From a virus, in IMG/VR virus record IMGVR_UViG_3300031227_000028, positions 1 to 64,000 of that record: a stretch of DNA of 64,000 nt; one strand, written 5' to 3'. Below are positions 2,958 through 49,884 of the stretch, one piece after another (position 1 is the first letter of the stretch; each line of letters opens with the position of its first letter). The position numbers and the translations under genes are program-made. The notes beneath the pieces were generated by a model. The model was given only the letters and a program-made list of their open reading frames with translations, was not told where the DNA came from and did no database searches.

Positions 2958-2958
2958 T

Positions 2959-10883: not shown

Positions 10884-10997
10884 TTTTATTTCTTTATTTT
10901 ATACGCACACATTATCCTCTTCCTTTCGGATTGTAGGCGTTGCACGATTTTAGATAATATTAAACATATCTTGACGCCTCGTTAAATTAATAATAGC

Positions 10998-26351: not shown

Positions 26352-27620
26352 ATGAAAATAATAGCAACAATAATGGGACAAAATTGCGAAAAAACATTAT
26401 CATTATGTTTAAAATCAGTTAAAGATTTCGATGGAATAGTTTATTTAGATGGTGGTAGTACTGATGATAGTAAATTAATAGCATTAGATTATGATTTAAC
26501 AATAATTAATAATAAATTTGATAAAAGTAATCCAAATATGATAAGTATTCAAAGAAATTATTATCTTAATTATCTTAAAAAAACATATAAAGAAGAATTA
26601 GAAGACGTTTTTATTTTAGTTCTTGATGCAGATGAATTTGTTTCAGAAGGAGCTTATGAAATATTAAAAAATGATATAAAAAAATTAAAAAGCTATACTG
26701 AAGATGGTCAAGGTTTAATGTCAAATATCATAAGTCCAAAAATGCGACATCTTATATATAATTTATCTTATGAAGATGCAACTAGAGAAACACATTTTGC
26801 ACCTAATAGATTATTTAACTTAAAATTTGCTGATAAATATCCAAAAGGAGAACATGGGATTCTTAATAATTCTGGTACTAGTTATAAATATAGTGGAATT
26901 ACTATATGGCATTTAGGTTATTTAGGAGGACCATGGGGAATTAAAAAAAGATATGACCAACAAATACTTAGAAACACTGGTCACGCAAAACAATATTTAA
27001 AAGATTGGAATAAAGCTCATTTATTAGGACATTATCCAATTAAAAAAGTTAATGTTTTAGATTTACCAAAAATATTATTAGAAAATTTTAGTCTTGATAA
27101 AGACGAAATATATTTTGAAGGTAGAGGAATTGAAAGCAAACATTTTATTGATGCTATAGATTGGAAAGAATTTTTTAAATGTAAAACAGCATATGAAATT
27201 GGTTGCGGAAGAGGTCCAAGAGTTTATGCATTAAATAATATTGGTGTTAAAACTTATGGTTGTGATATTAATAAATGGGCTTGTGAGCATAAATTTCATG
27301 ATAATATTGAACAAATGGATATTACTAAAATAAATTCTTGGAAAAATAAATATGATTTAATAATTGCATATGATGTATTGGAACATATTGAAGAAAACGA
27401 TTTATGGAGAGTAATTGATTATATGAAGTTTGGAACAAGAAAATATATTTTAATATCTGTACCAGTAATTGGTGACCTAAATTTAGAAGCTGACCCTACT
27501 CATAAAATTAAACAAACAAAAGATTGGTGGATTAAAAAGTTTACAGATAGAGGATTTAAATTAATTGAAACACCACAACATTTTTTATATAGAAATCAAT
27601 TAATGATATTTGAGGTTTAA
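26352..27620 (+). CDS. GT2 glycosyltransferase fused to a class I SAM methyltransferase
   Basis: N-terminal DGGSTD and LDADE; C-terminal EIGCGRG and YDVLEH. Confidence 0.85.
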   Translation: MKIIATIMGQNCEKTLSLCLKSVKDFDGIVYLDGGSTDDSKLIALDYDLTIINNKFDKSNPNMISIQRNYYLNYLKKTYKEELEDVFILVLDADEFVSEGAYEILKNDIKKLKSYTEDGQGLMSNIISPKMRHLIYNLSYEDATRETHFAPNRLFNLKFADKYPKGEHGILNNSGTSYKYSGITIWHLGYLGGPWGIKKRYDQQILRNTGHAKQYLKDWNKAHLLGHYPIKKVNVLDLPKILLENFSLDKDEIYFEGRGIESKHFIDAIDWKEFFKCKTAYEIGCGRGPRVYALNNIGVKTYGCDINKWACEHKFHDNIEQMDITKINSWKNKYDLIIAYDVLEHIEENDLWRVIDYMKFGTRKYILISVPVIGDLNLEADPTHKIKQTKDWWIKKFTDRGFKLIETPQHFLYRNQLMIFEV

Positions 27621-30994: not shown

Positions 30995-33127
30995 ATGAAA
31001 TTTAACTTAAGCCCTAGCAGTATGAACGTGTATTTTGAATCACAGTTAATGTACTATTTTCAAAAAGTAATTAAAGCACAACTAAGCGATTGGGTGCCAC
31101 AATGTTATGGTGCATTAGGAAATTGCTTACATTCAACTTTAGAAGAAGTTGATAAACTAAATAAAGACCAATTAGAAAGTCTATTCTGGGAGAAATACTA
31201 TGGTTCAGCAGCTGCTAAATCAGTTGGAATTAGAGGAACATATCCTGACCCATATAAATATTCTGAAGCAGTAAGATATGGTAAAGAAATATTTGAATTA
31301 AAATATGATATAATATCTTGTGAAGAAATAATTACTATTCCTATTTATGTTAATAATGAGCATACTATTTATTTAAAAGGTATTATTGATGTTCAAGCAA
31401 AATTAAAAAAAGATGGAAGTTATGTAATCGTTGACCATAAATCAAGTACTAGTATAGATAAAGGAGATAATTTCAAACGTCAAGGGTTATTTTATTCAAT
31501 GTTAATTTATAGAGTAAAAGGAATTCTACCAACGCAAGTTATTTTTGAATATGAAAAAATTAAAAAAACTAAATCATTTTCGTTTACAATTAAAGAATTA
31601 GATGATTTTTATGATTTATGTATTTCTACTATTAATGATATAATAGGTAAAGGAACAGATATAAGACAGTTTGAAATTGGTGAAATTAATAGTATTTTTA
31701 ATGGTCATAAAACTTTATGTGAACAAGTAAAAGAAAGTAGAAAAAATAAATTAAATTTTGGTATAGCTATATATGGTAATACATCAATACTTGTAGGAGA
31801 TATAACTGATATTTTAAAAAATAAATTAGATAAATTAATGTCATATGAAAAAGAGAATGCAGAATTTATAAAACAAAATAGTGATTGGGATGGGATAGTT
31901 CATTTATATAATAAATATAAAAATACATTTCCTACAGGATATATTCCTTTAGTTAAAAAAATATTAAAACATTATTCTGAATATATGAAAAAAGATTATA
32001 GATTAGAAATGAAAGATATGAGAAAACAAACTAAAAAAATTACATATTGTGAAAAACTAGAAGGTATTAAATTTAGAAGTTATCAAGAAGAATCTAGTAT
32101 TGCATTCTTTAAAGCCCAATATGGAATTATTAAATTAAAAACAGGGTTAGGAAAAACAATAGCTGCTGGTGAAATAATTAGAAAAGCTGGTTTAGTTACT
32201 TTATGGGTTATTGATAGAAAATTATTAGTTGAACAAACAGCTAAAACTTATCAAGAATTATTTAATGAAGAAATAGGAACTATTACTGAAGGTAAAATTG
32301 ATATTAAAAATATTACAATTTGTACTTATCAAACGTTAAATAGAAGATTTAAAGAATTAGCTGAATATTTAAAAACAGTTGGATTTTTAGTTGTAGATGA
32401 ATGTCATAAAGCTAGTGCAATGAGTATAAAAAATATTGCTGAACGATGTACAAATACTAAATATAGATTAGGACTTTCAGCTACTCCTGATTTGAAAAAT
32501 GAATGGCCTGAAGTAAAAGGTATATTAGGAGATATATGTTATCAATTAGATAAAGATGACCCACGTAATAAAGAATTTTTAGCTGAAGCTGATATAAATT
32601 TTATATCATTAGATGATAGAAAGTTTGCTGATAGTGGTGATTATCGAGAATCATATAATAGTTATATTGTTCATAATGATATAAGAAATAATTGTATAAA
32701 AAAATTAGTTGATAAACATAAAAACGAAAATATATTAATTGTTACAAAATTAATTGAACATGCAAAAATATTAAGTAAATTACTTAATTGTGCAATTATA
32801 ATTGGTGAAACATCTACAGAAGAAAGAAATAGAATTACTGAAGAATATGCAAAAGAAAAACCTTTTATTTGTGTAGGTAGTGTTCAAATAATTTCTGAAG
32901 GTTGGGATGTACCAACATTATCTGTTTTAATTCAAGCCAGTGCAATGTCAAGTAATATTAAAACAATACAAGGATTAGGTCGTCCTTTAAGAAAGAATAA
33001 CAATAAAGATAAAGCAATATATTATGATTTTTTAGATAAATATAATAAATACACAAATGATGCATCAAAAAATAGAATAAAAGCTCTTAAATATGAAGGA
33101 AATATATTAAAAGTAATAAATGGATAA
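30995..33127 (+). CDS. PD-(D/E)XK (RecB/Cas4-like) nuclease fused to an SF2 (UvsW/XPB-like) helicase
   Basis: N-terminal LSPSS, GNCLH, GIID...IVDHKS; C-terminal TGLGKT, DECH, SAT, EGWDVP, QGLGRPLR. Confidence 0.85.
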   Translation: MKFNLSPSSMNVYFESQLMYYFQKVIKAQLSDWVPQCYGALGNCLHSTLEEVDKLNKDQLESLFWEKYYGSAAAKSVGIRGTYPDPYKYSEAVRYGKEIFELKYDIISCEEIITIPIYVNNEHTIYLKGIIDVQAKLKKDGSYVIVDHKSSTSIDKGDNFKRQGLFYSMLIYRVKGILPTQVIFEYEKIKKTKSFSFTIKELDDFYDLCISTINDIIGKGTDIRQFEIGEINSIFNGHKTLCEQVKESRKNKLNFGIAIYGNTSILVGDITDILKNKLDKLMSYEKENAEFIKQNSDWDGIVHLYNKYKNTFPTGYIPLVKKILKHYSEYMKKDYRLEMKDMRKQTKKITYCEKLEGIKFRSYQEESSIAFFKAQYGIIKLKTGLGKTIAAGEIIRKAGLVTLWVIDRKLLVEQTAKTYQELFNEEIGTITEGKIDIKNITICTYQTLNRRFKELAEYLKTVGFLVVDECHKASAMSIKNIAERCTNTKYRLGLSATPDLKNEWPEVKGILGDICYQLDKDDPRNKEFLAEADINFISLDDRKFADSGDYRESYNSYIVHNDIRNNCIKKLVDKHKNENILIVTKLIEHAKILSKLLNCAIIIGETSTEERNRITEEYAKEKPFICVGSVQIISEGWDVPTLSVLIQASAMSSNIKTIQGLGRPLRKNNNKDKAIYYDFLDKYNKYTNDASKNRIKALKYEGNILKVING

Positions 33128-33202
33128 ACAAAACATTTATATATTAGTTATGATTATTTATTATTTATTATGATTAAAAAAATTTATATGAGGTAAATAA
33201 AA

Positions 33203-33907
33203 ATGAAAATAAAAAAACAAATTATTAGAGATTTTTTAAAAGAAAGTGCATTATCTGGTGATAGTTCACTTACTGAAGTAAAATTAGATTTCAATGAACA
33301 AGCAATGTGCTTAACTGCAATAACTGGTGGTAATGCTGTAATGGTAAAAGCTCAATTAATTTCTGGTGCATTTGAAGAATATGAAGCAATTGGAAAAATT
33401 GGAATAATTAATTATTCTGAATTGACAAAAATTATTGATGCATTAAATGATAATATTGAAATTAATAAAGAAGGAAATTTATTAGTATTTAAAGGTGGGC
33501 GAAAAATTGAAGTACCATTAGCTGATGAATCATTAATTAAAGATATTTCAAAAATTCCTAGTTTAGAATATGATTATACATTTGCTTTGAATAAATCAGT
33601 ATTTGACGCTATTAATAAAAATATTGTATTCTCAATGAATAAAAATGATAGTAAAACTATTCAATTTACTGGTGAAAATAAAATATTAAATATTAAATAT
33701 GGTACTAAATATAAATTTGAAGATAGTATTGCAGTTAATGAAATTAATGCTAATAAAATTGATGTTAAATTTGGAGAGCCTTTATTAAATGCTATTACAA
33801 ATTTAAGTGGTGATTTAACAGTTCAAATGAAAAGCGAATTTCCAATAACTATTATGAAAAAAACTGAAATGTATGCAATTAAGATTATTGTAGCACCAAA
33901 AGTTTAA
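33203..33907 (+). CDS. pcn: DNA sliding clamp (PCNA-like)
   Basis: 234 aa with a two-domain beta pattern, ends IIVAPKV like archaeal PCNA, adjacent to RFC. Confidence 0.85.
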   Translation: MKIKKQIIRDFLKESALSGDSSLTEVKLDFNEQAMCLTAITGGNAVMVKAQLISGAFEEYEAIGKIGIINYSELTKIIDALNDNIEINKEGNLLVFKGGRKIEVPLADESLIKDISKIPSLEYDYTFALNKSVFDAINKNIVFSMNKNDSKTIQFTGENKILNIKYGTKYKFEDSIAVNEINANKIDVKFGEPLLNAITNLSGDLTVQMKSEFPITIMKKTEMYAIKIIVAPKV

Positions 33908-33955
33908 ATTTTTATTTTATTTTATTTTATTAAATTATTAAGAGGGAGAAACAAA

Positions 33956-34882
33956 ATGAATATTGACGATTTAAAAAACATTGCATGGATGATTAAATAT
34001 AGACCAAAAACATTAGATAATGTTGTTGGAAAAGAAGCTAAACTATTGAAAAAATATGTTGATAGTAATAATTTACAACATTTTTTACTATCTTCTAGAA
34101 CACCAGGTACAGGAAAAACAACTTGTGCAAAAGCTATTATTAATGATACTGGAGCAGATTACATTGAAATAAATAGTAGTGATGAAAGAGGAATAGATGT
34201 TATTAGAGATAAAATTAAATTATTTGTTAGTACGATGAGTTCTAAACCTGGTTTAAAAAAAATTGTATTTTTAGATGAAATGGATTCTATGACTAAAACA
34301 GCTCAAGATGCACTTCGTAATATGATGGAGAAATTTATGACTAATGCTATCTTTATTCTAACTTGTAATTATATTGAAAAGGTTATTGAACCAATCAAAA
34401 ATCGTTGTGAAGTTATAGTTTTTGATAGTCCTGATAAAGCAGAGATTAGAAAATATTTATTGAATATCATAGATGCTGAAAGCGTTAAATATACTAGTGA
34501 TGGATTAAATAAATTAATTGATATGAATTATCCAAGTATAAGAGAATCTGTTAATACTTTACAAAAGTTTAAAACTATGGATATTGAATTGAATCCTATT
34601 AATTTAAAAAAAAATAATGAGAAATTTGATATTTTATGGACAGATATTAAAAGTGGTAAGGTTTTAAATGTTAGAAAAGAAATCTGTGAAAATAATTATA
34701 ACCCTGAATTATTATTAAAACATTTTTGGGCAAAAACATATACAGATGAAAAATTAACTATAAAACAAAAAATTAAATTAGTATCTGTATTAGCAGATGT
34801 TGATTATAAAATGAGTATTGGTGCATCAAAAAATATTCAAATAGATAATATGTTATTTAAAATAGTAGGTGCTTTAATATAA
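33956..34882 (+). CDS. rfcS: Replication factor C small subunit / clamp loader ATPase
   Basis: W..KYRP, PGTGKTT, NSSDERGIDVIR, LDEMD, AQDALR, CNY, NRC. Confidence 0.92.
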   Translation: MNIDDLKNIAWMIKYRPKTLDNVVGKEAKLLKKYVDSNNLQHFLLSSRTPGTGKTTCAKAIINDTGADYIEINSSDERGIDVIRDKIKLFVSTMSSKPGLKKIVFLDEMDSMTKTAQDALRNMMEKFMTNAIFILTCNYIEKVIEPIKNRCEVIVFDSPDKAEIRKYLLNIIDAESVKYTSDGLNKLIDMNYPSIRESVNTLQKFKTMDIELNPINLKKNNEKFDILWTDIKSGKVLNVRKEICENNYNPELLLKHFWAKTYTDEKLTIKQKIKLVSVLADVDYKMSIGASKNIQIDNMLFKIVGALI

Positions 34883-34887
34883 TTAAA

Positions 34888-35382
34888 ATGGATTTATTCA
34901 AAACTTTAAATAAAATATATACTGCAAGAGATACTGATTGGGTTAAAGATATTGATAGTAATGTGTCAAATGTACCTATTAATATTATTTTATCATATAA
35001 TATTAAACTTAGTAATGTAGTAGCTTTTTTAGATAAATATACATTTAGATTAGATGTTAAGAATTTTTGTATATTAGCTTGGGCAATTATACACCCTAAA
35101 TATAATTCAATGCCTTTTAGTAAAAAAATAAAAGCTAATGAAAAAGAAAATAATAAATATCAATTTTTATTAGATAAAATACAAACTAGAATGGAAATAT
35201 CAAACAATGATTGGGTTGATTCTAAGAATTATTATATTGAAGACATTGAAAGAAGAATAACAGATTATTTAACTTTATTTGGTTGTACTAAAAAAGAATG
35301 GAAATCAATTGGAATTGATTTTGAAGAATCAAAAAAAATTAATATTGTAGATATAAAAAAAGGATTAGATAAATGGTTTTAA
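34888..35382 (+). CDS. Probable second clamp-loader subunit (gp62-like) with a C-terminal PIP-like motif
   Basis: Follows RFC, helical, ends KKGLDKWF. Confidence 0.55.
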   Translation: MDLFKTLNKIYTARDTDWVKDIDSNVSNVPINIILSYNIKLSNVVAFLDKYTFRLDVKNFCILAWAIIHPKYNSMPFSKKIKANEKENNKYQFLLDKIQTRMEISNNDWVDSKNYYIEDIERRITDYLTLFGCTKKEWKSIGIDFEESKKINIVDIKKGLDKWF

Positions 35383-35483
35383 TTAACAAAACATTTATAT
35401 ATTATATATGTAATAAATAATTATATTGATAGGAGACTGTTACTCCTAATCAAATAGAACAAAAAAAATACGGAGATATAAAA

Positions 35484-36134
35484 ATGATAAATGAAATAAT
35501 AATAACTTACAAATTTTTTGGTAAGAGAGGCTTATTTGTATTCACAGGTATAGCAATAATCTTAGCAAATATACAAGTTTTGAAAACAGTACAATTATTT
35601 GGAATGGTTGCAACATTAGGTAATGTTATATATGGATGTTCTTTTTTGATAACAGATATATTATCTGAAAATCATGGGAAGAAAGATGCTAAGACAGCTG
35701 TTATAATAGGATTGTCTGCAGCAATAATATCAACTGTTATAATGTATATATGTACTTTATTCGTTCCACATTCAAGTGATTTCGCTAGTGGGGCTTTATC
35801 AACAATTTTTAGTGTTATGCCAAGAATAATGATTGCATCTTTAATAGCATATACAATATCTAACTTTAATGATGTACATATATTCCATAAAATAAAAGCT
35901 AAAACAGGAGATAAACATCTTTGGATTAGAAATATTGGTTCAACATTTTCAAGTCAATTATTAGATACAGTAATTTTTAGTGTAATAGCTTTCTGGGGAA
36001 TGTTTAGTAGAGATATATTTATTCAAATAATGTTAACTACATATATTATGAAAATTGTAACAGCAGCTTTAGATACACCTTTCCTTTATCTTGCTAAATG
36101 GATGAAGAAAAATGGTCATGTGAGTGAGGAATAA
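35484..36134 (+). CDS. yhhQ: Queuosine-precursor (preQ0/preQ1) transporter, YhhQ/VUT family
   Basis: Multi-TM with ANIQVLK, FLITDILSE.HG, RIMIASLIAY, LWIRNIGST..SQLLDT, DTPFLY. Confidence 0.9.
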   Translation: MINEIIITYKFFGKRGLFVFTGIAIILANIQVLKTVQLFGMVATLGNVIYGCSFLITDILSENHGKKDAKTAVIIGLSAAIISTVIMYICTLFVPHSSDFASGALSTIFSVMPRIMIASLIAYTISNFNDVHIFHKIKAKTGDKHLWIRNIGSTFSSQLLDTVIFSVIAFWGMFSRDIFIQIMLTTYIMKIVTAALDTPFLYLAKWMKKNGHVSEE

Positions 36135-36135
36135 A

Positions 36136-37287
36136 ATGGATAGAAATTTTTTTGAAGAGAATAAATTAGTATATTTGCCAGCAACCCTTCCATCTGCTGA
36201 GTTATGTATAAATAATGATGAACCAACTGCAAAACAACCTCACTTTTGGAATAAAGAAACATCAATATGGTACTATCCAAATTTATTAATTAGTGCATAT
36301 CATGCAGATAAAATTGAAGATATTAGAAAATTAATGGGAATAGATAAAGATGTAAAAATTCTTTATGATAGTGGAGGTTACCAAATGGTAACCTTAGGAG
36401 GAAATATTAATCCTAAAGATTTAATAGAATTACAATTAAAAAATTCTAATGCTGGCCTTATATTAGATAATCCTCCTTTTAAAATAGGATTAGGAAATTC
36501 ACAGTTTGGTGAATCAATGAATGAAGATGAAATATCAATATGTCTTAATAAAACAAAAGAGAATGCTAAAATTGCAATGGCTAATAATATAGGACCAAAT
36601 AAAATTAGATTATATGGTGTAGTGCAAGGAGAATCATGGGAACAAATTAATAGATGGTATGATTCAATGCATGAATTAGAAGAAGAATATGGAAAATTTG
36701 ATGCCTGGGCAATGTCACCAAAACCATCAACAATAGCATTATATGGAATTTTATTATTAGAAAGAAAAATTAAAACCCCAATACATTTTTTACAGGCTAC
36801 AAGTAGAGAAGCAATATCCACTACCGCATATATTAGAAAATTATCAAAAAATTTGATAACTATTGATAGTTCAAATTTTTCATCTGGTACAAGATATGGA
36901 AGAATAATAAATTATGAGCATTTAGGTATATTTGATATAGGCGAAGGAAAAAGAGAAAAAAATAAAAAAGGTTGGTTTTGTGATTGTCCTATTTGTAGAG
37001 AAAGAAAAATTGATATTGAAAATTTATCAACAACAGATTTAAAATATATAAATATTCATAATTTATATCAAATAGTTAAAATTGTAAAAGTTGCAGATTG
37101 GTTAGTTGATTATAGTGAAGTAATGTTTTTTAATTGGATTAAGAAATTTAAATCATCATGCACTGGTGCAATTAAAATGTTACAATTTTATGATAAATAT
37201 GGATTAGAAAGAACTAAATTAAATTACTCAGATATATTCACAGCAAATGATAATATAGTAAATCAAAAAGGTTTATTTGATTTTTAA
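36136..37287 (+). CDS. Guanine transglycosylase (TGT/DpdA superfamily), paralog 1
   Basis: DSGGYQ, LILD, LYGVVQG, ITIDSS, Zn site CDCPIC...HN; no PUA domain; ends QKGLFDF. Start placed at MDRNFF. Confidence 0.85.
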   Translation: MDRNFFEENKLVYLPATLPSAELCINNDEPTAKQPHFWNKETSIWYYPNLLISAYHADKIEDIRKLMGIDKDVKILYDSGGYQMVTLGGNINPKDLIELQLKNSNAGLILDNPPFKIGLGNSQFGESMNEDEISICLNKTKENAKIAMANNIGPNKIRLYGVVQGESWEQINRWYDSMHELEEEYGKFDAWAMSPKPSTIALYGILLLERKIKTPIHFLQATSREAISTTAYIRKLSKNLITIDSSNFSSGTRYGRIINYEHLGIFDIGEGKREKNKKGWFCDCPICRERKIDIENLSTTDLKYINIHNLYQIVKIVKVADWLVDYSEVMFFNWIKKFKSSCTGAIKMLQFYDKYGLERTKLNYSDIFTANDNIVNQKGLFDF

Positions 37288-37312
37288 ATTATATAGATTA
37301 GGAGAAAATAAA

Positions 37313-38458
37313 ATGAAAAGAACATTTTTTGAAAATAATAAATTAGTTTTTATCCCTGCAATTTTACCTAATAAAGATCTTTTTGGTAAAGAAACAGATA
37401 AATATTCTTTTTTTTCTGATAAGTCTTTATATTTTTATCCTAATGTTTTAATTAGTGCATATCACGGGAAACATTTAGATATTAGGAAAGAATTAGAATG
37501 TAATGATAATGTTATGATTTTAGGTGATTCAGGTGGATTTCAAGCAGTAACTTTAGGTGGCGATATAAACGCTAAAGAAGTTATTAAATGGCAAATGAAT
37601 AATTGTAATGCTGGTTTAATACTTGATAAGCCTCCATATAAATTTGGTGGAACAGCGCAATTTGCAGGTACACCATCTAAAGAATTTTTTAATGAATGTT
37701 TAGAAAAAACAAAACAAAATGCTTTAATAGCTCTTGAACATAATAAAGGCGAAAAGAAAATTAGATTATATGGAGTAATTCAAGGCGAAACATGGGAACA
37801 AATGAAACAATGGTATGAAACAATATCATCAATTCAAACAAATGAGAAAAAATTTGATGCATGGGCATTATCACCAAAACCATCAAATGATGTTTTTAAA
37901 ATTGCAATGCTTGGTATTTTATGTTTAGAAAAAAAAATAGATACACCATTGCATATACTTCAAATTTCAAATCGTCCTGGAATAATAGTTGCTGCTTTAA
38001 TAAGATTTTGTATTCAACAAACAGTAACTATAGATAGTTCTTCTCCTTCAAAAGCATCACGTTTTGGGGAAATATATAATCCATATACATTTTTAGCAGA
38101 AATTAAAACCGGGCAAAGAAGACCAAAAGAAAAAATGAATGGATGGATGTGTGATTGCCCAATATGTCAAGCAACTAATATATCTTTTAATGATGTTGAA
38201 AATAAAAATTATGAAAATATTTTGGATTTACATAATTTATATCAAATAGTGCGTTTTGTAAAATATATGGATTGGGTAGTACAAGATAAAGAAATATTAA
38301 TGAAAATGGTAAAAACTGTTTCAATTAATGCTTATAATGCAATTGAAATGATTTATTATTATAAAGAATATGGATTAGAAAGAACTAAATTAAAATATCC
38401 AAATGTATTTGAATCAAATAATGATGCATCAAATCAAAAAGGATTATTTGAATTTTAA
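37313..38458 (+). CDS. Guanine transglycosylase (TGT/DpdA superfamily), paralog 2
   Basis: DSGGFQ, LILD, LYGVIQG, VTIDSS, CDCPIC...HN; ends QKGLFEF. Start placed at MKRTFF. Confidence 0.85.
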   Translation: MKRTFFENNKLVFIPAILPNKDLFGKETDKYSFFSDKSLYFYPNVLISAYHGKHLDIRKELECNDNVMILGDSGGFQAVTLGGDINAKEVIKWQMNNCNAGLILDKPPYKFGGTAQFAGTPSKEFFNECLEKTKQNALIALEHNKGEKKIRLYGVIQGETWEQMKQWYETISSIQTNEKKFDAWALSPKPSNDVFKIAMLGILCLEKKIDTPLHILQISNRPGIIVAALIRFCIQQTVTIDSSSPSKASRFGEIYNPYTFLAEIKTGQRRPKEKMNGWMCDCPICQATNISFNDVENKNYENILDLHNLYQIVRFVKYMDWVVQDKEILMKMVKTVSINAYNAIEMIYYYKEYGLERTKLKYPNVFESNNDASNQKGLFEF

Positions 38459-38467
38459 GGTAATAAA

Positions 38468-38941
38468 ATGGCTGTGAAACAAGAAACATATGATAAATGG
38501 ATAGCTAAATATGGTCCAAATGCAAGAATTGGTTTAGATATTATAGGTAAATGTAATTTATATCCTAAAGAATTAGGGAGAATATTTTTACCTACAATAA
38601 CAGAGGCAATTAAAAAAAATAATTGTTATATAATTGATGATAGGAATTGGGTATTTTTTAATTATAATAAAAAATTAAATAAAATGAAACTTCAATATAT
38701 ATTATCAATGGACCATAAAGGAACTATTTTATTAAAACATCTTGAATCAATTTGTGCAGAAAGACATATTCCTATAATTTATTTAACTGTTGTTGCAGGA
38801 ATGCCAGCAGTTGATTGGTATTATAAAAAAGGTTTTATAAAAGTTAAAGAAAGACATTCAAGGAAGGGAACTTTATTGTTTGATGTTGAGAAGAAGTTTT
38901 TTAAAATAGGTTTAGAGAAATGGTATAAAAATGAAATATAA
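38468..38941 (+). CDS. GNAT-family acetyltransferase
   Basis: KGTILLKHLE...IYLTV....AVDWYYKKGF matches GNAT motifs A/B; near-terminal IGLEKWY. Confidence 0.7.
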   Translation: MAVKQETYDKWIAKYGPNARIGLDIIGKCNLYPKELGRIFLPTITEAIKKNNCYIIDDRNWVFFNYNKKLNKMKLQYILSMDHKGTILLKHLESICAERHIPIIYLTVVAGMPAVDWYYKKGFIKVKERHSRKGTLLFDVEKKFFKIGLEKWYKNEI

Positions 38942-41048
38942 ATCGCAAATAGACAAAATGATTAGTAATTGTTTGGTATATGATATAGAAACAAGCGCTA
39001 GTTATCCTGATGGTAAACCAATAAACATTAAAACAGATTTTAAAAATTATATTAAATATGCAATAGTTAAATGGGTAGGTTTTTATTCTTATAAATATAA
39101 TAAATATTATGAATATAATGCTATTATACAACTTGATGAAATTGACCAAATGTTTAAAGACCATAGACATATTATTGGTATAAATAATATAGAATTTGAT
39201 ACTCCTATTTGTATGAATAATAATATTATAAAACAATATCAACATAAACAAATAGATTTACAGGTTATTCTTGGAAATAATTTATTACAAGGGCATAAAA
39301 ATAGAGCAACATTTATGGGTGTAAATTTAAAAAAAATTATTATTAATGATAAAGAATATGGACCTAATACTTTAATGAGTTTAGCTTATCATTTTAATTT
39401 ACCAGTATTAAAAGGAGATATAGATTATAATATATTTTTTAAAAATCATTGGGATGAAAAAGAAACTAAAAATATTATTAAATATTTACATGGTGATATA
39501 GAAGTAACTAAATTATTATTTGATAAAGTAATTAATTTCTGGACTATATTTACAGATTGGTTATATATTGAAGATGTAGAAAAATGGGCTTGGTTAAAAA
39601 GTAGTATTGCCAGTTTAACTTATCTTGCAGCATGTAAAGTTAAAAATGTTTTACCAACATATGGAAGTATAGGAGAAACTGAAGATATGGGTGGAAGAGC
39701 AGTAATGCCTATTAAAGATGAAATATATAATGTTCATTATTTAGATGAAGCATCTAAATATCCACATATATTTGCTCAGTTTAATTTATTTAGTGAAGTA
39801 GATATATCAAGTTATACTAATGAACAAATTGAAAAAGCAATTGCAAATAATATAATATGGCATGGCAATGATAAATTTAAAGTTAAAGGATATTATTATA
39901 TAAAAGAACAATCTATATTAGCTAAAGATGTATTAAATAAATTAAAAACAAGAATAGCTGTTAAGAAAATACTTAAAAAAGATAAAAATGGTAAATATAT
40001 TAATATTGATGAACATAATTATATGAAAATAGAAATTGACCCATTGTTAAAAGATTTTATATTTGATAAACAATTATCTGATTATATTATAAATTCATTA
40101 AATGGATTACAATATGCTATTAAAATCTTTTTAAATTCATTATATGGTGCAGTTAGAAGTGGAATATTTGAACAAATACATACTCCTAATGCTGGATATG
40201 ATTGTTGTTGGATTGGTCAACAAATTCATGAAAAAGTTGAAAAAGAATTTAAAGACCGTGGATATGACACAGTAGGTGGATTTACAGATTCCTGGTTTAT
40301 AGAAAAAAAAGAAGGAGATACTAGAGAATTAATGATTAAATATTGTAAAACTATAATGAACAAATTAAAAGAATCATTTATTTTTCCTGCAGATACACAT
40401 ATAATTGATTATGAATGTTTTATGGATTATTTATTATATAATAAAGATAAGAAAAATGAATATAAAAAAAATAATTATTGTTTCATATCTAATGGTAAAG
40501 TTAAAGTTGTAGGATTTCCTATAAAAAAAAGTAATTCATCTAAACTAGGAAATATAATACTTAATAAATATATTATTCTAGAAGGATTAAAAAGAAATAA
40601 TTTAAAATTTAAAAAGAAATATTTTGATAATATAATTGCAGAAGAATTAAAAAATGATATTACTTTATCTGCTGTTGTTTTTAAATGTAATCCATCAATA
40701 ACTTATAAAAAAATAAATCAATTACAAGCACAAGTAAGTCGAGCATATTTTGATGGTTTAGGTGGAGAAATAGCTATAATTAAAAATAAAAAATTTGGTA
40801 AAGTAGGAAAAACAAATAAATATTGTACTATAAAAGAAGCAATAGAAAATAATATACAAGTTGAAGATTTAGATTTAACTAAATTATTTAATGAACTTAA
40901 TCCATTTATTAGAAAAGAAAAAGATATGGATTTATTTAGTTTTGTTGGTGGTGATGATAATTTATTTGATGAAAAAGTTGATGAAAAAGTTGATGAAAAA
41001 GTTGATGAAAAAGTTGAAACAAAAACGGGGCTAGATAAATGGTTTTGA
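38931..41048 (+). CDS. polB: Family B DNA polymerase
   Basis: Exo motifs YDIET, N..FD and YLHGD; Pol motif A DEASKYP, B KIFLNSLYG, C GFTDSW; ends KTGLDKWF. Confidence 0.9.
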   Translation: MKYKSQIDKMISNCLVYDIETSASYPDGKPINIKTDFKNYIKYAIVKWVGFYSYKYNKYYEYNAIIQLDEIDQMFKDHRHIIGINNIEFDTPICMNNNIIKQYQHKQIDLQVILGNNLLQGHKNRATFMGVNLKKIIINDKEYGPNTLMSLAYHFNLPVLKGDIDYNIFFKNHWDEKETKNIIKYLHGDIEVTKLLFDKVINFWTIFTDWLYIEDVEKWAWLKSSIASLTYLAACKVKNVLPTYGSIGETEDMGGRAVMPIKDEIYNVHYLDEASKYPHIFAQFNLFSEVDISSYTNEQIEKAIANNIIWHGNDKFKVKGYYYIKEQSILAKDVLNKLKTRIAVKKILKKDKNGKYINIDEHNYMKIEIDPLLKDFIFDKQLSDYIINSLNGLQYAIKIFLNSLYGAVRSGIFEQIHTPNAGYDCCWIGQQIHEKVEKEFKDRGYDTVGGFTDSWFIEKKEGDTRELMIKYCKTIMNKLKESFIFPADTHIIDYECFMDYLLYNKDKKNEYKKNNYCFISNGKVKVVGFPIKKSNSSKLGNIILNKYIILEGLKRNNLKFKKKYFDNIIAEELKNDITLSAVVFKCNPSITYKKINQLQAQVSRAYFDGLGGEIAIIKNKKFGKVGKTNKYCTIKEAIENNIQVEDLDLTKLFNELNPFIRKEKDMDLFSFVGGDDNLFDEKVDEKVDEKVDEKVETKTGLDKWF
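40968..41015 (+). repeat. 12-bp tandem repeat x4 encoding a (DEKV)4 linker before the PolB PIP motif
   Basis: GATGAAAAAGTT four times. Confidence 0.9.
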
Positions 41049-41171
41049 ATTATTGTAGAAGATGTGGAAGAAAACTTAATAGCGATAAAGATTATGGGCC
41101 AGTATGTTTAAAAAAAGTTATATTTGAAAGAAGTTTAAATAAAGATTTACTTGTTGATTTTGAGGTTGAAG

Positions 41172-41678
41172 ATGTTTGAAGATTTAGAAGAACCAAAAAT
41201 AAAAGCTATTAAGAAAAAACGTAAGAAACAAATATTAGAAGGATTATTTTCTCAATCTATAAAAAAATATCCTAATTTATTAGGACATAAATTACATAAT
41301 AACCCTTTAGCCCATCAAACTACTCATGCTGATTTTGAAGTATTAAATAAAAATGGTAATATTTATTTTGTTGAAGCAAAAGAATCTAAATTAAATGATA
41401 AAGGATATGGTTCATTTGCATTTAAAAGATTAACTCAAAGAAATTCTTTAATTTTTTATTCTAATTTTTCTAATTATACTTTTAGTTTTATACTGTTATT
41501 CTTTCGTTCTAACACTATGGAAAAATCAAGGTGTTTTGCTATACCTATAGAAAAATGGTGCGAATTTGAGCAAGTAATAGGCAAGAAATCAGCTAATATA
41601 CACGATATAAATGAAAATTTTGCTGATTATATATTAGAATACAGTAATAAACAGTTTAATCTAATGTTCTTATGTTAA
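41172..41678 (+). CDS. Holliday junction resolvase-like PD-(D/E)XK nuclease
   Basis: ADFEV...FVEAKES, RecU/Hjc-like; directly after PolB; likely start MFEDL. Confidence 0.65.
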   Translation: MFEDLEEPKIKAIKKKRKKQILEGLFSQSIKKYPNLLGHKLHNNPLAHQTTHADFEVLNKNGNIYFVEAKESKLNDKGYGSFAFKRLTQRNSLIFYSNFSNYTFSFILLFFRSNTMEKSRCFAIPIEKWCEFEQVIGKKSANIHDINENFADYILEYSNKQFNLMFLC

Positions 41679-45749: not shown

Positions 45750-46496
45750 AAACTATAGAAGAATTACAAAAACGTTTAGAAGGTGCCTTTAAACATAGTA
45801 ATTTTTTTGATTCTTTACATGAAGTTAATGAAGTAAAAAAAGTTATTGGTGCAAAGGAATTAACTAAATTTTTAAAAAAGAAAATTAATATTATAAAAAA
45901 AGAAAAAAGAGAATATAATTTAAAAGTCAAAAATATTAGAATTAAATATGGTTCATTTAACGAATATATATATGAAGAAGCTTTACAATATATAACTCAT
46001 AGTTATAAAGTAGGAGAAATTGTTGTTGTTGAATATTGTGATTCATATAAAGCCCTTAAAATACATAAAATAACAAAAAAAGGTTATGATTTATGGGATG
46101 GAAATAAATTGGCCACAATAATGAAAATACCAGAATCTAGTATATTAGGTTATGGACATAATTTAAATAAAATAATTAAAGAAAATGACAAAAAGAAGGT
46201 CAAAAATTAATTCAACTTTTTTTCTTGATATAATTGGTGAAGATAAAGTTGATAAAAAGAAATATAAAAAAACAGATAAATATAAACCCAACGATTATTT
46301 TATGTAAATAATATTATTTAATACAAACATTTATATATTAGTTGTTATATTATTATGAATATGTATAAGACAACAAGTTTAACCAATATGTGTATGAGTA
46401 ATTTATTACTTGCGTCATTTTAGTTATAACTATGTTGTTAAGCTTATTCTTTTTATTTATCTGTTTAACAACAGGTTGAAATATATTAAAATTTAT

Positions 46497-46572
46497 AGAA
46501 GTGTAGGCTAGTCAGGTCAAAGTCACGCGGCTCATGACCGTGAGAACGTTGGTTCAAATCCGACCACTTCTA
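46497..46572 (+). tRNA. tRNA-Met(CAT), initiator-like A1:U72
   Basis: AGAAGTG/CACTTCT acceptor, CGCGG-CT CAT GA-CCGTG. Confidence 0.9.
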
Positions 46573-46682
46573 TTTTGTTTAAATGTACATTTAAATAAAC
46601 GTGATAAAAATAATTACCTACCGTTTAGAAACGAAAGGAGGAGTGATTCCCTCGTTGCAAGGAATTATTGTTTATTTTTATT

Positions 46683-46753
46683 GCCGATGTAGTATAATGG
46701 TATTATACCTGGCTGTTGACCAGATGATAGGGGTTCAATTCCCTTCGTCGGCG
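46683..46753 (+). tRNA. tRNA-Asn(GTT)
   Basis: Cloverleaf with loop CT GTT GA. Confidence 0.9.
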
Positions 46754-46759
46754 TTTTAT

Positions 46760-46880
46760 ACGTGTGTGGCTGATTGGTAAAAGCGCTGGACTTAGAATGA
46801 AAATTCGTCTACAAGATGTTTTTACATAAGTTATCCAGTTTCCTAAGTGGATGTTGTGTGTTCAATTCATACCACACGTA
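46760..46880 (+). tRNA. tRNA-Leu(TAG) with a BHB intron at 46797-46832
   Basis: CTGGA-CT TAG A[intron]A-TCCAG; CTTA/TAAG helix, 3-nt bulges GAA and TTA; long variable arm. Confidence 0.9.
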
Positions 46881-46887
46881 TTTTTAT

Positions 46888-46971
46888 GCTACGATGGCTC
46901 AATATGGCACAGCAACAGATTGCTAATCTGTGAGACAATAACTCTTTTCGGTTCAAATCCGAATCGTAGCG
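46888..46971 (+). tRNA. tRNA-Ser(GCT)
   Basis: Cloverleaf with long variable arm. Confidence 0.9.
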
Positions 46972-47069
46972 TTGAAGGAGAAGCTAAAAATGGTCTTATT
47001 GGAAGCAAGAGGCAATGCTTGACGAAGAGAAACTTATAACTGTAGCGGGTTATACATTCATTATTTTTT

Positions 47070-47150
47070 GCTAACAAAGCGAATGGTAAGCGTGCCGTCT
47101 TGAAAACGGTTGGTCCTTGCGGCTCGTCAGTTCGAATCTGGCTGTTAGCG
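47070..47150 (+). tRNA. tRNA-Ser(TGA)
   Basis: Cloverleaf with long variable arm; short, atypical D arm. Confidence 0.85.
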
Positions 47151-47179
47151 TTATTAAAATAAAAAAAATATAAATTATT

Positions 47180-47253
47180 GGGCGAATAGTTAAATCTGGT
47201 ATAACGTCCCGCTTGCAACGGGGAGGCTTCGGGTTCAAATCCCGATTTGTCCA
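47180..47253 (+). tRNA. tRNA-Ala(TGC)
   Basis: Cloverleaf with G3:U70. Confidence 0.92.
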
Positions 47254-47262
47254 TATATTAAA

Positions 47263-47463
47263 ATGAGTTATGATAAAAATCATACAAAAGACGATTGTGA
47301 TAAATGTCTTGAAAGGGTTGGAAAAGAAAATTTAACACCTATTAAGTTTTTATATCTTGATAGGAATGATTTAATGCATCCTGATTATTATCATAACGCA
47401 ACTAAAGCACAAAAAGATTACAAATTATATTATGTTTGTAAAAATTGTTTAAAAAATTATTAA
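47263..47463 (+). CDS. Small Zn-finger protein inside the tRNA array
   Basis: CDKC...CKNC. Confidence 0.6.
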   Translation: MSYDKNHTKDDCDKCLERVGKENLTPIKFLYLDRNDLMHPDYYHNATKAQKDYKLYYVCKNCLKNY

Positions 47464-47464
47464 T

Positions 47465-47538
47465 GCACGTGTGGCACAGTGGTCTACTGCGTCTGCCTTG
47501 TAAGCAGAATTACCCCAGTTCAAATCTGGGTACGTGCT
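47465..47538 (+). tRNA. tRNA-Thr(TGT)
   Basis: Cloverleaf. Confidence 0.92.
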
Positions 47539-47544
47539 TTTTAT

Positions 47545-47616
47545 GCATCATTGGGCAAGTGGTAAGTCGTCTGTCTGCAAAACAGAAGAACCCCGGTTCA
47601 ATTCCGGGATGATGCT
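47545..47616 (+). tRNA. tRNA-Cys(GCA)
   Basis: Cloverleaf with U73. Confidence 0.92.
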
Positions 47617-47617
47617 T

Positions 47618-47902
47618 ATGGTAAAATATAAAAAAAAATATGGGCATGAATATCCAACATTAACAGTTCCAATGAAATCACTTCAAGAAGAAAATTTATT
47701 TATTAATCCTTATTGGAATGAATGGAATACTCAAAAAGATAGTTTAAGAGTTATATGTGATAATAAAAAAATAGTTAAACAAAATAAAAATAGAATACAT
47801 AAATTTTCAGTTTGGGATATTAGAGAAAAAGGAATACAAGAAAAAAATAAAAAAAAATTAATTATAAGAAAGAAAAGAAAATTATTAAATAATATTATTT
47901 AA
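47618..47902 (+). CDS. Basic hypothetical protein inside the tRNA array
   Basis: True start likely MVKYKK at 47618, because the longer track call overlaps tRNA-Cys. Confidence 0.55.
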   Translation: MVKYKKKYGHEYPTLTVPMKSLQEENLFINPYWNEWNTQKDSLRVICDNKKIVKQNKNRIHKFSVWDIREKGIQEKNKKKLIIRKKRKLLNNII

Positions 47903-48174
47903 TACAAACATTTATATATTAGATATGGTTTTATATAATTATAATAAATAATCTTAATATTAATTTATTAAGAAATATTAAATAACTAGATAATTATAGG
48001 TGTTATCCCAATCATATTAAAATGAACATACAAGAATGGAGACAGGACGGGGAAAGAGGCTTTGACATAGTGTTTAAGCCTATCTATCGTTAGTCCTTCC
48101 ATGGTTCATATCAATTTCTAAATAAATAAAAAAGAACATTGGCCATGTGCCATGGAATTCTAAAAAAAATATAC

Positions 48175-48245
48175 AGTCGTATAGTTTAATGGTAAAATTA
48201 TCCGTTTACACCGGATGGCTATGAGTTCAATTCTCATTGCGACTA
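48175..48245 (+). tRNA. tRNA-Val(TAC)
   Basis: Cloverleaf. Confidence 0.9.
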
Positions 48246-48259
48246 TAATAAACCTTTAT

Positions 48260-48332
48260 GCTCTAATGGTCTAGTGGACAATGACATCTGGCTTTCGACC
48301 AGAAGACCTGAGTTCAATTCTCGGTTGGGGTA
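48260..48332 (+). tRNA. tRNA-Glu(TTC)
   Basis: Cloverleaf with a GU-rich acceptor. Confidence 0.88.
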
Positions 48333-48338
48333 CTTTAC

Positions 48339-48413
48339 TGGGTGGTGGTCTAGTTTGGCTAAGACTCTCGACTTGGACTCGAGAAACCGGGGGTTCAAAT
48401 CCTCCCCATCCAA
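48339..48413 (+). tRNA. tRNA-Pro(TGG)
   Basis: Cloverleaf. Confidence 0.9.
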
Positions 48414-48423
48414 TATTTATTTT

Positions 48424-48495
48424 GCCTGTGTAGTGTAATGGCTATCACATGAGACTGTCTATCTCAAAATTTGGGTTCAATTCCCAGCATGGGCG
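48424..48495 (+). tRNA. tRNA-Asp(GTC)
   Basis: Cloverleaf with G73. Confidence 0.9.
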
Positions 48496-48499
48496 TTAT

Positions 48500-48574
48500 G
48501 GAAGTATAGCTTAATCTGGTTAAAGCACCGGTCTTATATACCGTTGAATCTGGGTTCAAATCCCAGTATTTCCA
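48500..48574 (+). tRNA. tRNA-Ile(TAT)
   Basis: CCGGT-CT TAT AT-ACCGT, A73. Confidence 0.88.
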
Positions 48575-48579
48575 TTTAT

Positions 48580-48652
48580 GGACGTATGGCTAAGTGGTTA
48601 AGGCAGTCGACTGATATTCGAAAGAACACCGGTTCAAATCCGGTTATGTCCA
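48580..48652 (+). tRNA. tRNA-Ile(GAT)
   Basis: Cloverleaf. Confidence 0.9.
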
Positions 48653-48658
48653 TTTTAT

Positions 48659-48768
48659 GCACCCATAGTCTAAACTGGAAGGGCTCTTGGCTTCGATACA
48701 ATTGTATGGCTAGTAAGACGCTTTTTTGAAGATACCAAGGTATCCGGGTTCAAATCCCGGTGGGTGCT
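48659..48768 (+). tRNA. tRNA-Arg(TCG) with a BHB intron at 48697-48733
   Basis: CTTGG-CT TCG A[intron]A-CCAAG; CTTC/GAAG helix, bulges GAT and ATA. Confidence 0.88.
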
Positions 48769-48773
48769 TTTAT

Positions 48774-48847
48774 GTGAATGTAGCAAAACGGTTTAATGCA
48801 CTCGACTTTTAATCGAGAGACTGAGGGTTCAAATCCCTTCATTCACA
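48774..48847 (+). tRNA. tRNA-Lys(TTT)
   Basis: Cloverleaf. Confidence 0.92.
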
Positions 48848-48854
48848 TTTTTAT

Positions 48855-48927
48855 AGGGTAGTGGTCTAGTGGACAATGACATCTGACTTTGGATCAGAAA
48901 ACGGCAGTTCAATTCTGCCCTACCCCA
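48855..48927 (+). tRNA. tRNA-Gln(TTG)
   Basis: Cloverleaf with an A1-C72 mismatch. Confidence 0.9.
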
Positions 48928-48932
48928 TAATT

Positions 48933-49004
48933 GCTTGCATAGCATAACGGTTAATGCTTCAGGTTGTGGTCCTGATAATCTGGGTTCAATTCCCAGTGTA
49001 AGCT
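48933..49004 (+). tRNA. tRNA-His(GTG)
   Basis: Cloverleaf; no encoded G-1. Confidence 0.88.
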
Positions 49005-49011
49005 TTTTAAT

Positions 49012-49084
49012 GGACATATAGCATAATGGGAGTGCGCTGAGCTGAAGCCTCAGTATTGTTGGAGTTCGACTCTCCATATGTCCA
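49012..49084 (+). tRNA. tRNA-Phe(GAA)
   Basis: Cloverleaf. Confidence 0.9.
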
Positions 49085-49094
49085 TCATATTAAA

Positions 49095-49601
49095 ATGGCA
49101 TACGAACTATATAAAATAAAAAAGGATAAAGAAAATTATTTTAAAGATTGGTCTAGTGATAAACTTTTAACTTTAACTGACGAAATAAAAGAAGTAGTCT
49201 ATAAAAAGTATTTAGTTAAATGTGATGTTTTTAAAAGAGATAATTATAGTTGTCAAAATATTAATTGTAAAAATTTAAATAGTCCATTAACAATGCATCA
49301 TGTTAAATTTCAAAAAAATGGTGGAGAACATAAAATAAAAAATTGTGTAACTTTATGTGAACCATGTCACGTTTTATTTCATAGAGCTAGAACAGCAATT
49401 ACTTATAAAAATAATAAATATCTTCCTATTCATATTAGAGGTAAAACTTTTATGTTAGATAGACAAGATAAAATTAACTGGAAAGAAATTAAAAGTCATA
49501 TGAGAAAACTTAGAAAAACTTTAAGAAAAGAAAGAATTTATTTAAGTTGGAAAGATATGAATTTATTAATGAAATTTTTAGAATTAAATTTTGAAGATTA
49601 G
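49095..49601 (+). CDS. HNH endonuclease inserted in the tRNA array
   Basis: VFKRDNYSCQ..C...LTMHH.....GG....NCVTLCEPCH; start MAYEL. Confidence 0.85.
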   Translation: MAYELYKIKKDKENYFKDWSSDKLLTLTDEIKEVVYKKYLVKCDVFKRDNYSCQNINCKNLNSPLTMHHVKFQKNGGEHKIKNCVTLCEPCHVLFHRARTAITYKNNKYLPIHIRGKTFMLDRQDKINWKEIKSHMRKLRKTLRKERIYLSWKDMNLLMKFLELNFED

Positions 49602-49606
49602 TTTAT

Positions 49607-49681
49607 GTATCTGTAGTGTAGTTTGGTCTATCATCTGGGACTTCCAATTCTGGGACGTGGGTTCGAATCCCACCGGGTACA
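49607..49681 (+). tRNA. tRNA-Gly(TCC)
   Basis: Cloverleaf with A73 (archaeal/eukaryal type). Confidence 0.88.
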
Positions 49682-49688
49682 TTTTTAA

Positions 49689-49759
49689 CCGCTCGAGATA
49701 TTTGGTAATCATACGAGGCTGTAACCCTTGTTCTATCGGTTCAATTCCGGTCGGGTGGA
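49689..49759 (+). tRNA. tRNA-Tyr(GTA), archaeal type
   Basis: C1:G72, short variable loop, A73; atypical D arm. Confidence 0.82.
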
Positions 49760-49767
49760 TTTTTAAT

Positions 49768-49840
49768 GGGCTGTTGGTGAAATCTGGTATCATATTTGGC
49801 TCCAGACCAAATGTTATGGGTTCAAATCCCATGCAACCCA
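49768..49840 (+). tRNA. tRNA-Trp(CCA)
   Basis: Cloverleaf. Confidence 0.9.
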
Positions 49841-49884
49841 TATATAAAAGCTTTATAAAGGCTTTATAAACCCTTTTTCTATTA

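Follow-up and report, generated by a model that had tools for sequence, protein, structure and literature searches.

We examined the first 64 kb of a viral genome (IMG/VR record IMGVR_UViG_3300031227_000028, positions 1 to 64,000; hereafter, the window), in which an operon for a PCNA-type sliding clamp, its loader and a family-B DNA polymerase (PolB) also encodes two transglycosylases of the TGT superfamily, TGT1 and TGT2. Both enzymes end in a short peptide resembling the PCNA-interacting-protein (PIP) box. A preliminary description of the window had proposed that DpdA-like enzymes are recruited to DNA by such clamp tails. Comparison with other viruses supported this idea in part, because TGT family genes lie near PolB and near preQ0/preQ1 genes in other viruses, the tails of the family are conserved and co-vary with those of PolB, and a sibling virus (contig L012) carries tailed DNA methylases in the same operon. 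Within this idea, clamp binding, DNA as the substrate, the base inserted and the role of the GNAT protein are inferred. PCNA-tethered 7-deazaguanine modification of DNA is the best reading of these sequences, to which we assign a probability of roughly 0.6, and the modification is probably coupled to replication.

All nine genes named in the preliminary description (PCNA, RFC, clamp-loader subunit, YhhQ, TGT1, TGT2, GNAT, PolB and resolvase) are present in that order. Together with the neighboring helicase gene and two promoter-like motifs, which resemble the B recognition element (BRE) and TATA box, they are laid out as follows.

30995..33127, + strand: PD-(D/E)XK nuclease and SF2 helicase (Pfam ResIII, Helicase_C and PDDEXK_1), at the upstream edge of the cluster
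33131..33143, + strand: promoter-like motif AAACATTTATATA (BRE/TATA-like), upstream of the PCNA gene
33203..33907, + strand: PCNA-type sliding clamp (NCBIfam NF002222, E = 2e-13; 15 homologues)
33956..34882, + strand: RFC small-subunit or gp44-like clamp-loader ATPase (NF001679, E = 1e-65; phrog_168, E = 4e-66)
34888..35382, + strand: p164, a protein of 164 aa and probable gp62-like clamp-loader subunit A, with tail KKGLDKWF at 35356-35379
35389..35401, + strand: second copy of the promoter-like motif, before YhhQ
35484..36134, + strand: YhhQ/Vut_1 transporter of preQ0/preQ1 precursors (TIGR00697, E = 1.2e-61; PF02592, E = 6e-50)
36136..37287, + strand: TGT1, DpdA-like transglycosylase of 383 aa, with tail QKGLFDF at 37264-37284
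37313..38458, + strand: TGT2, paralogous DpdA-like transglycosylase of 381 aa, with tail QKGLFEF at 38435-38455
38468..38941, + strand: GNAT-like small protein, with PIP-like KIGLEKWY at 38903-38926, then KNEI
38931..41048, + strand: PolB, with motifs A, B and C legible in the sequence
41151..41678, + strand: Holliday-junction resolvase-like protein (phrog_843, E = 4e-5), at the downstream edge of the cluster

The true ATG starts of TGT1 and TGT2 lie slightly inside these open reading frames (ORFs). The five tails that had been reported all read exactly as given, with the correction that the GNAT motif is not terminal: the residues KNEI follow it because the GNAT gene overlaps the start of PolB. 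The tail of PolB, KTGLDKWF at 41022-41045, is preceded by an acidic repeat linker. Set against the PIP consensus Q-x-x-[LIVM]-x-x-[FYW]-[FYW], all five tails are variants. Those of the TGTs, Q-K-G-L-F-[DE]-F, end at position 7 of the box, and those of PolB, p164 and GNAT start with K in place of the canonical Q, keep L at position 4 and have W[FY] at positions 7-8. Two tail classes can be distinguished, hF[DE][FY] on modifying enzymes and GL[DE]KW[FY] on PolB, p164 and the GNAT of the window. They run parallel to two known kinds of archaeal PIP peptide, the LFDF type of RFC-L and the GL..W[FL] type of PolB and Fen1. Structures of PCNA-bound Fen1 and PolB (PDB 1rxm and 3a2f) were among the fold matches of the viral PCNA, and archaeal PolB and Fen1 are both known to dock on PCNA through C-terminal PIP peptides (for PolB, Tori 2007, as cited in PMC7594292).

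Such tails are rare elsewhere in the genome. Of the 277 ORFs with 40 aa or more that the complete genome contains, only 5 have GL..[FWY][FWY] or GLF.[FWY] in their last 16 residues, and all five fall within six adjacent genes, a placement estimated to have a chance probability of ~1e-5. In the AlphaFold2 model of TGT1, the last helix spans residues 365-368, and the disordered linker and tail (residues 371-383) have a predicted local distance difference test score (pLDDT) below 50. Among TGT homologues the linker varies in both length and sequence, and the last seven residues are conserved. A variable linker followed by a conserved terminal heptad is how short linear docking motifs are built.

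The tail motif, on which the proposal in the preliminary description turned, proved to be conserved in homologues. Of the close homologues of TGT1, nine are complete, and each of them ends in Q/K-x-x-[LIV]-[FS]-x-[FIWV]. Across 147 full-length representatives of the family, Q..[LIVM]..[FWY] occurred in the last 12 residues of 21%, compared with 0.4% of internal control windows, and almost always stood at the C-terminal end or one residue off. The tail persists in a family that has diverged to ~25% identity. Moreover, TGT and PolB tails on the same contig are alike (..KFFDI/..QFFSFG, ..EFFNF/..QFFQF and ..LLDYY/..DLFEY). The mean tail score of TGT-PolB pairs was 11.0 within genomes and 8.0 with other genomes (10 lineages), and 830 of 100,000 permutations reached the observed score.

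We examined 13 lineages of viral contigs with family members, several of which are identified below by contig number. The TGT gene lies directly upstream of PolB in L005, L006, L007, L008/9, L040 and L046, directly downstream of it in L047, and two or three genes from PolB and an RFC-like loader in the T4-like marine contigs L049-L061. In 12 of the 13 lineages, PolB or an RFC-like loader is at most ~4.5 kb from the TGT gene, and no association of TGT with tRNA genes was found in the viral contigs examined. Genes for the supply of precursors adjoin the same pairs: QueF is directly upstream of the TGT in L005, a YhhQ 76% identical to that of the window immediately precedes the TGT-PolB pair of L006, QueE-FolE-QueC-QueF is directly upstream of the TGT in L007 and L008/9, and QueE-FolE-QueC holds this place in L040. 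Such neighborhoods typify the gene clusters with which phages make 7-deazaguanine modifications in DNA (PMC6884629, PMC10516641). The survey of homologues bears out the synteny of the TGT family with PolB and preQ0/preQ1 genes across other viruses.

Several of these contigs, and some phages with known deazaguanine genes, merit separate mention. On L005, an NAD-binding oxidoreductase and QueF (L005:518-1689) stand directly upstream of the tailed TGT-PolB pair, a gene content that implies the use of preQ1 rather than preQ0 in this relative. The ORFs of 236-252 aa beside the TGT in T4-like contigs gave no identification with Pfam and are not callable as clamps. In the prototype dG+ phage 9g (L014, KJ419279, 36-3960), the genes directly after dpdA bear the annotations 'replicative clamp' and DNA polymerase, and the 9g DpdA ends in ..RLQDLFDE, reminiscent of a beta-clamp-binding motif. 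The hypothetical protein VPFG_00169 of phage nt-1 (L017:1-543), encoded upstream of FolE in the deazaguanine cluster, ends in ..ENSLANFF, which resembles the T4-type clamp epitope; DpdA2 of the same phage ends in ..EYPDFKS. The GC-rich viral contig L044 has a lineage-specific common tail, ..SASSTSW on its TGT (3729-5087) and ..SAAGTSW on its RFC-like protein (7674-9299). Finally, unannotated TGT-like proteins of 530-550 aa, distant relatives of the family, occur in jumbo phages that infect Pseudomonas, Vibrio or Sinorhizobium, and their genes (NCTB L003, Phosso L004 and GR11A L015) adjoin primase, helicase or RecA.

The sibling virus L012 offers a natural swap. Its operon has the same order as that of the window, with identities of 44% for the helicase, 50% for PCNA, 55% for RFC, 48% for p164, 58% for PolB and 56% for the resolvase. 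The helicase and the resolvase, at the two edges of the cluster, are without a clamp-type tail in the window, and the L012 helicase occupies an equivalent position. In L012, p164 ends in KSGLDKWF and PolB in EEEKWF. YhhQ, TGT and GNAT are absent from the L012 operon, into which four DNA methyltransferases (2070-3083, 5120-6730, 7519-8433 and 10467-11084; three N6_N4_Mtase and one C5) are interleaved, and these end in ..QPSIFDF, ..KGVFDYA, ..ADLFSFNEE and ..KGVFDYE. Conversely, the genome of the window has no N6_N4_Mtase or C5 methylases of this kind. The same replisome operon with the same tails thus holds deazaguanine transglycosylases in one virus and four methylases in the other. Within this lineage, every tailed protein of the operon that has no part in replication is thus a DNA-modifying enzyme, and one cassette can stand in for another. 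We regard the swap as the strongest argument that TGT1 and TGT2 would act on DNA and that their tails would be functional.

We then considered the identity of the two transglycosylases. TGT1 and TGT2 are 46% identical, roughly equal to their distance from homologues in other viruses. The AlphaFold2 model of TGT1 (pLDDT 79; predicted TM-score, pTM, 0.83) is a TGT-type TIM barrel with a zinc subdomain, and it matched bacterial/eukaryotic TGT, ArcTGT and the bacterial DpdA 7ui4, all with probability 1.0. The catalytic residues D78 (DSGG[FY]Q) and D244 (IDSS) and the base-binding D111 do not vary between the paralogues or among any of the homologues, and the zinc site CxCxxC...H is invariant in both paralogues. 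These roles were assigned by homology, with D78 and D111 aligned to ArcTGT motifs and the DSSS motif to 9g DpdA. TGT1 as a single sequence found no match in the PDB, TGT1 alone found none in a scan of viral contigs, and PADLOC reported no bacterial DpdA match for the TGTs. A profile of 11 close homologues reached ArcTGT (1iq8, E = 2.6e-7) by way of DSG.FQ, LD.P and CxCPxC...HNL. The family is large: at E <= 1e-3, an exhaustive profile search recovered 1,282 representatives of clusters.

Against every model of tRNA TGTs, both proteins scored below the cut-off: PF01702 at 21-24 bits against 26.3, TIGR00430 at 30 against 307, TIGR00432 at 22 against 350, and TIGR00449 at 21-39 against 47.6. The tRNA-binding domains of ArcTGT (C1, C2 and PUA) are absent from TGT1 and TGT2, in which nothing but a helical extension follows the zinc site. 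Thus, the window TGTs share with ArcTGT 1iq8 the TIM-barrel and zinc fold and the three motifs above, but they are without its ~200 C-terminal tRNA-binding residues and lie in a replisome rather than a translation context. Among characterised DpdAs, a 44-sequence family profile scored best against nt-1 DpdA2 (VPFG_00171, E = 6.6e-15), less well against 9g DpdA1 (E = 1.3e-3; hhalign probability 38%), and found no match to phiST DpdA3 (hhalign probability 49% over 90 columns). Because of this ranking we call the two proteins DpdA-like, nearest by sequence to DpdA2 among the characterised subfamilies and possibly a separate clade. We rejected membership in DpdA3 for want of a profile match to phiST DpdA3, and in DpdA4 for want of a DUF6610 domain. 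In Vibrio phage nt-1, dPreQ0 is attributed to DpdA2 (PMC6884629). Like the window TGTs, this enzyme belongs to the TGT superfamily, occurs in a viral 7-deazaguanine context and has DSGG.Q and DSS motifs, although the similarity is distant and extends over ~225 profile positions. It differs in being 464 aa long, encoded between FolE and QueC, and without an obvious PIP-type tail, whereas the window TGTs (381-383 aa) are duplicated, lie in a replisome operon, end in QxxLFxF and come from a virus with no biosynthesis genes.

The presumed docking platform for the tails is the viral PCNA. Its AlphaFold2 model has a pLDDT of 91, and its top Foldseek matches in the PDB were all archaeal or eukaryotic PCNAs, the best being Haloferax PCNA (3ifv, TM 0.85); gp45 was not among the top 50 matches. 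A scan of viral contigs with the PCNA alignment gave no match. By sequence and predicted fold, then, the clamp is a genuine archaeal/eukaryotic-type PCNA. Pfam gave no family for p164 and no match for PolB. An Atlas lead pointed p164 to Phage_clamp_A clusters by features (0.90) and structure (TM 0.51/0.63), and p164 is probably a gp62-like clamp-loader subunit A.

The promoter-like motif generalizes to A[AT]ACATTTATATA, of which the window has 15 copies against 3.9 expected. The copies always point along local transcription and are intergenic, including those before both tRNA blocks, and the motif looks like a BRE/TATA-type viral promoter. Copies lie at these positions.

8726, 15507, 17317, 18498 and 18978, - strand: A[AT]ACATTTATATA
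29979, 33131, 35389, 41704, 44301, 46325, 47906 and 49900, + strand: A[AT]ACATTTATATA

Since one copy precedes YhhQ and the downstream genes are tightly packed or overlapping, YhhQ, TGT1, TGT2, GNAT and PolB look like one transcription unit.

The preliminary description had seen no folE, queD, queE or queC in the window, and this holds for the rest of the genome as well: none of QueC, QueD, QueE, QueF, FolE or a radical-SAM protein was found in the virus. The base must therefore come from the host or via YhhQ. Phages that encode DpdA, either alone or together with YhhQ, and depend on host or exogenous precursor form a published category, which the virus matches. The assignment of GNAT is weak (Acetyltransf_10, E = 2e-4, below cut-off). 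Its single homologue, P0176, is 61% identical, carries PF13673 and ends in ..KNILDF, a tail that is also hydrophobic but differs in sequence from that of the window GNAT. Because their ENA contigs have the same length of 3,052 bp, P0176 and the TGT homologue P0002 are probably encoded on one contig. The GNAT protein could possibly acylate an aminomethyl-deazaguanine.

Taken as a mechanism, the preferred reading would run as follows. A modification cassette (YhhQ, TGT1, TGT2 and GNAT) would have been inserted between the loader and polymerase genes. The precursor, preQ0 or preQ1, would be made by the host or salvaged by YhhQ, and TGT1 and TGT2 would exchange guanine in viral double-stranded DNA for a 7-deazaguanine base. 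The PIP-box-like peptide of each enzyme, following its flexible linker, would dock in the hydrophobic pocket of PCNA, tethering TGT1 and TGT2 to rings loaded during replication. Rings remaining on freshly copied DNA would direct the modifying enzymes to the DNA of the virus and not to that of the host, and this tethering would make modification fast and extensive. The tailed GNAT might further modify the base or a component of the replisome. In a wider form of this proposal, clamp tails would be a modular address label, used in archaeal and bacterial viruses and acquired by any modifier in a replisome operon (DpdA-like enzymes, N6/N4 and C5 methylases, GNAT), and the GNAT here would also make an undescribed acylated base. 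This wider form is possible, and we advance it tentatively.

A number of observations weigh against clamp-tethered DNA modification. The TGT tails are without the eighth, aromatic residue of a canonical PIP box and three of the tails have K for Q. A recognisable tail is missing from a number of the family's proteins, such as the TGTs of L006 and L062-65, and the co-variation test covers just 10 lineages. The best PDB match of the family by sequence is a tRNA enzyme, the ArcTGT noted above, and the fold search ranks tRNA TGTs slightly above the bacterial DpdA 7ui4. The virus encodes 20 tRNAs, among them the GUN set, and G15 is present in 8 of the 18 that could be scored, so tRNA substrates exist. 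In addition, an archaeal host would probably supply preQ0, which has no amine, leaving GNAT without an obvious substrate.

The departures from the PIP consensus would also fit an explanation in which DNA is modified but the tails bind something other than PCNA, such as the polymerase, the loader, an SSB-like (single-stranded DNA-binding) protein or a factory scaffold, or are mere remnants of cassette insertion. The two tail classes could mean different partners, and turnover of cassettes at the locus is evident from the comparison of the window with L012. A scar, however, would not be expected to be kept in a family down to ~25% identity. Both tail classes resemble known archaeal PCNA ligands, and the virus encodes its own PCNA immediately upstream. 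Polymerase and clamp-loader subunits, moreover, are textbook clamp clients (PMC2988020). We consider this explanation unlikely, and it is the strongest of those that compete with PCNA tethering.

The tRNA-related observations would instead be explained if the TGTs modify tRNA, at G15 as for archaeosine or at G34 of the viral Asn, Asp, His and Tyr tRNAs as for queuosine, their position in the operon being incidental. All four GUN tRNAs and a CCA-adding enzyme are encoded by the virus. Position 15 of the viral tRNAs (10 A, 8 G and 2 unscorable) does not discriminate against this explanation. Yet the TIGR00430 and TIGR00432 scores fall far under their cut-offs, proteins of 383 aa are without the C-terminal tRNA-binding domains of the 582-aa ArcTGT, and the family is nearer to DpdA2 than to other DpdAs. 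Across many viruses the family also accompanies genes for PolB and clamp loaders, with no tRNA-gene association; its tails match those of DNA enzymes, and the same slots in L012 are filled by DNA methylases. Archaeal tRNA is not known to contain queuosine. Together these points make action on tRNA improbable. Least probable of all is that one or both paralogues are non-enzymatic or do not exchange guanine, as in a QTRT1/QTRT2-like heterodimer or glycosylase-type repair: the tandem pair is divergent, TGT1 has a 4-residue deletion in the conserved segment SPKPS.DP.KIA, and TGT enzymes act as dimers (PMC6884629), but both copies keep all catalytic and zinc-binding residues, each has its own tail, and the family-wide linkage to YhhQ/Que points to deazaguanine chemistry.

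The preliminary description knew of no clamp-coupled DpdA, and our literature searches on 7-deazaguanine, DpdA or methyltransferase together with a clamp likewise gave no description of one. DNMT1 is a DNA-modifying enzyme coupled to PCNA, with a PIP box that is N-terminal and internal. DNMT1-PCNA and the T4 alpha-glucosyltransferase (alpha-GT) with gp45 embody the same concept, in which a clamp recruits a modifier to newly replicated DNA, although their chemistry is methylation and glucosylation, respectively, and that of the window virus would be base exchange. The alpha-GT/gp45 interaction is disputed, as it was not reproduced with C-terminally tagged enzymes (bioRxiv 10.64898/2025.12.06.692756). 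The archaeal PIP clients PolB, RFC large subunit and Fen1 resemble the proteins described here in having a C-terminal Q/K-x-x-L-x-x-aromatic after a flexible linker and a PCNA-type clamp. They differ in that base-exchange enzymes and GNAT are not known partners of PCNA, that binding is putative here, and that the TGT box is one residue short. In T4 and RB69, the gp45 clients gp43, gp33 and gp55 use interchangeable hydrophobic/acidic C-terminal epitopes on a clamp 'toolbelt' (PMC2988020). The window virus likewise encodes its own clamp and has an operon layout of clamp, gp44-like and gp62-like loader and PolB, but its clamp is PCNA-like by sequence and fold rather than gp45-like, and its extra candidate clients are DNA-modifying rather than transcription factors.

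DpdA is thought to act post-replication, and the share of G that phages replace, which is <0.1% in some and complete in others, is unexplained (PMC10516641). If the proposal is true, a clamp-docking tail would account for the ability of a base-exchange enzyme to find viral DNA, reach high coverage and spare the host. It would also extend the PCNA/gp45 'toolbelt' to DNA-hypermodification enzymes, as a viral counterpart of DNMT1-PCNA coupling. In metagenomes, the tail could mark DNA-acting as opposed to tRNA-acting TGT homologues.

The virus genome is a single contig of 82,856 bp with a terminal overlap of ~98 bp and a GC content of 26%; IMG/VR assigns it direct terminal repeats, and its completeness by CheckV is 100%. 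The virus is uncultured, and the Logan contigs that contain it all come from salt-lake metagenomes. One of these runs is probably the source, two others contain 75% and 49% of the sampled words, and there was no RNA dataset among the sequencing runs listed as containing it. The genome encodes a large terminase (TerL) and a portal fused to a Mu-F-like domain, as expected of a tailed virus. In the portal gene (3470-5491, - strand), the C-terminal part is a minor head domain like that of Mu-F and SPP1 gp7 (phrog_9232 and phrog_115). The genes for translation lie downstream of the replisome operon.

46496-49841: array of 20 tRNA genes
51715-53076: CCA-adding enzyme, few genes downstream of the array

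Several features of the genome speak to the host. The viral tRNA-Tyr is 71 nt long, its variable arm is short, and it has C1 paired with G72 and an A73; these features are the archaeal/eukaryotic identity set, which bacterial TyrRS is not known to accept. The viral tRNA-Met has an A1:U72 pair. Because of these tRNA features, the BRE/TATA-like promoter motif and the PCNA-type clamp, we favor an archaeal host, which we consider likely. We also weighed a bacterial host, suggested by the CCA-adding enzyme, which is class II (PolyA_pol head and HD) and thus of bacterial/eukaryotic type, and by RFC and TerL, whose closest relatives among cultured viruses are from bacteriophage in a collection that holds few archaeal viruses. 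This was judged less likely given tRNA-Tyr, tRNA-Met and the promoter motif. An archaeal-type tRNA-Tyr beside a class II CCA enzyme is an odd pairing if the host is archaeal. The neighbors of YhhQ in cellular genomes were mixed bacteria and one metagenome-assembled genome of Methanosarcinales, giving no decision on the host. Our main conclusion is independent of the host assignment.

Lastly, the window encodes a fusion of glycosyltransferase and methyltransferase at 26352-27620, and a cluster of three glycosyltransferases with a small S-adenosylmethionine (SAM) methyltransferase at 53621-57723. The glycosyltransferase genes at both places may have a role in glycan or virion modification.

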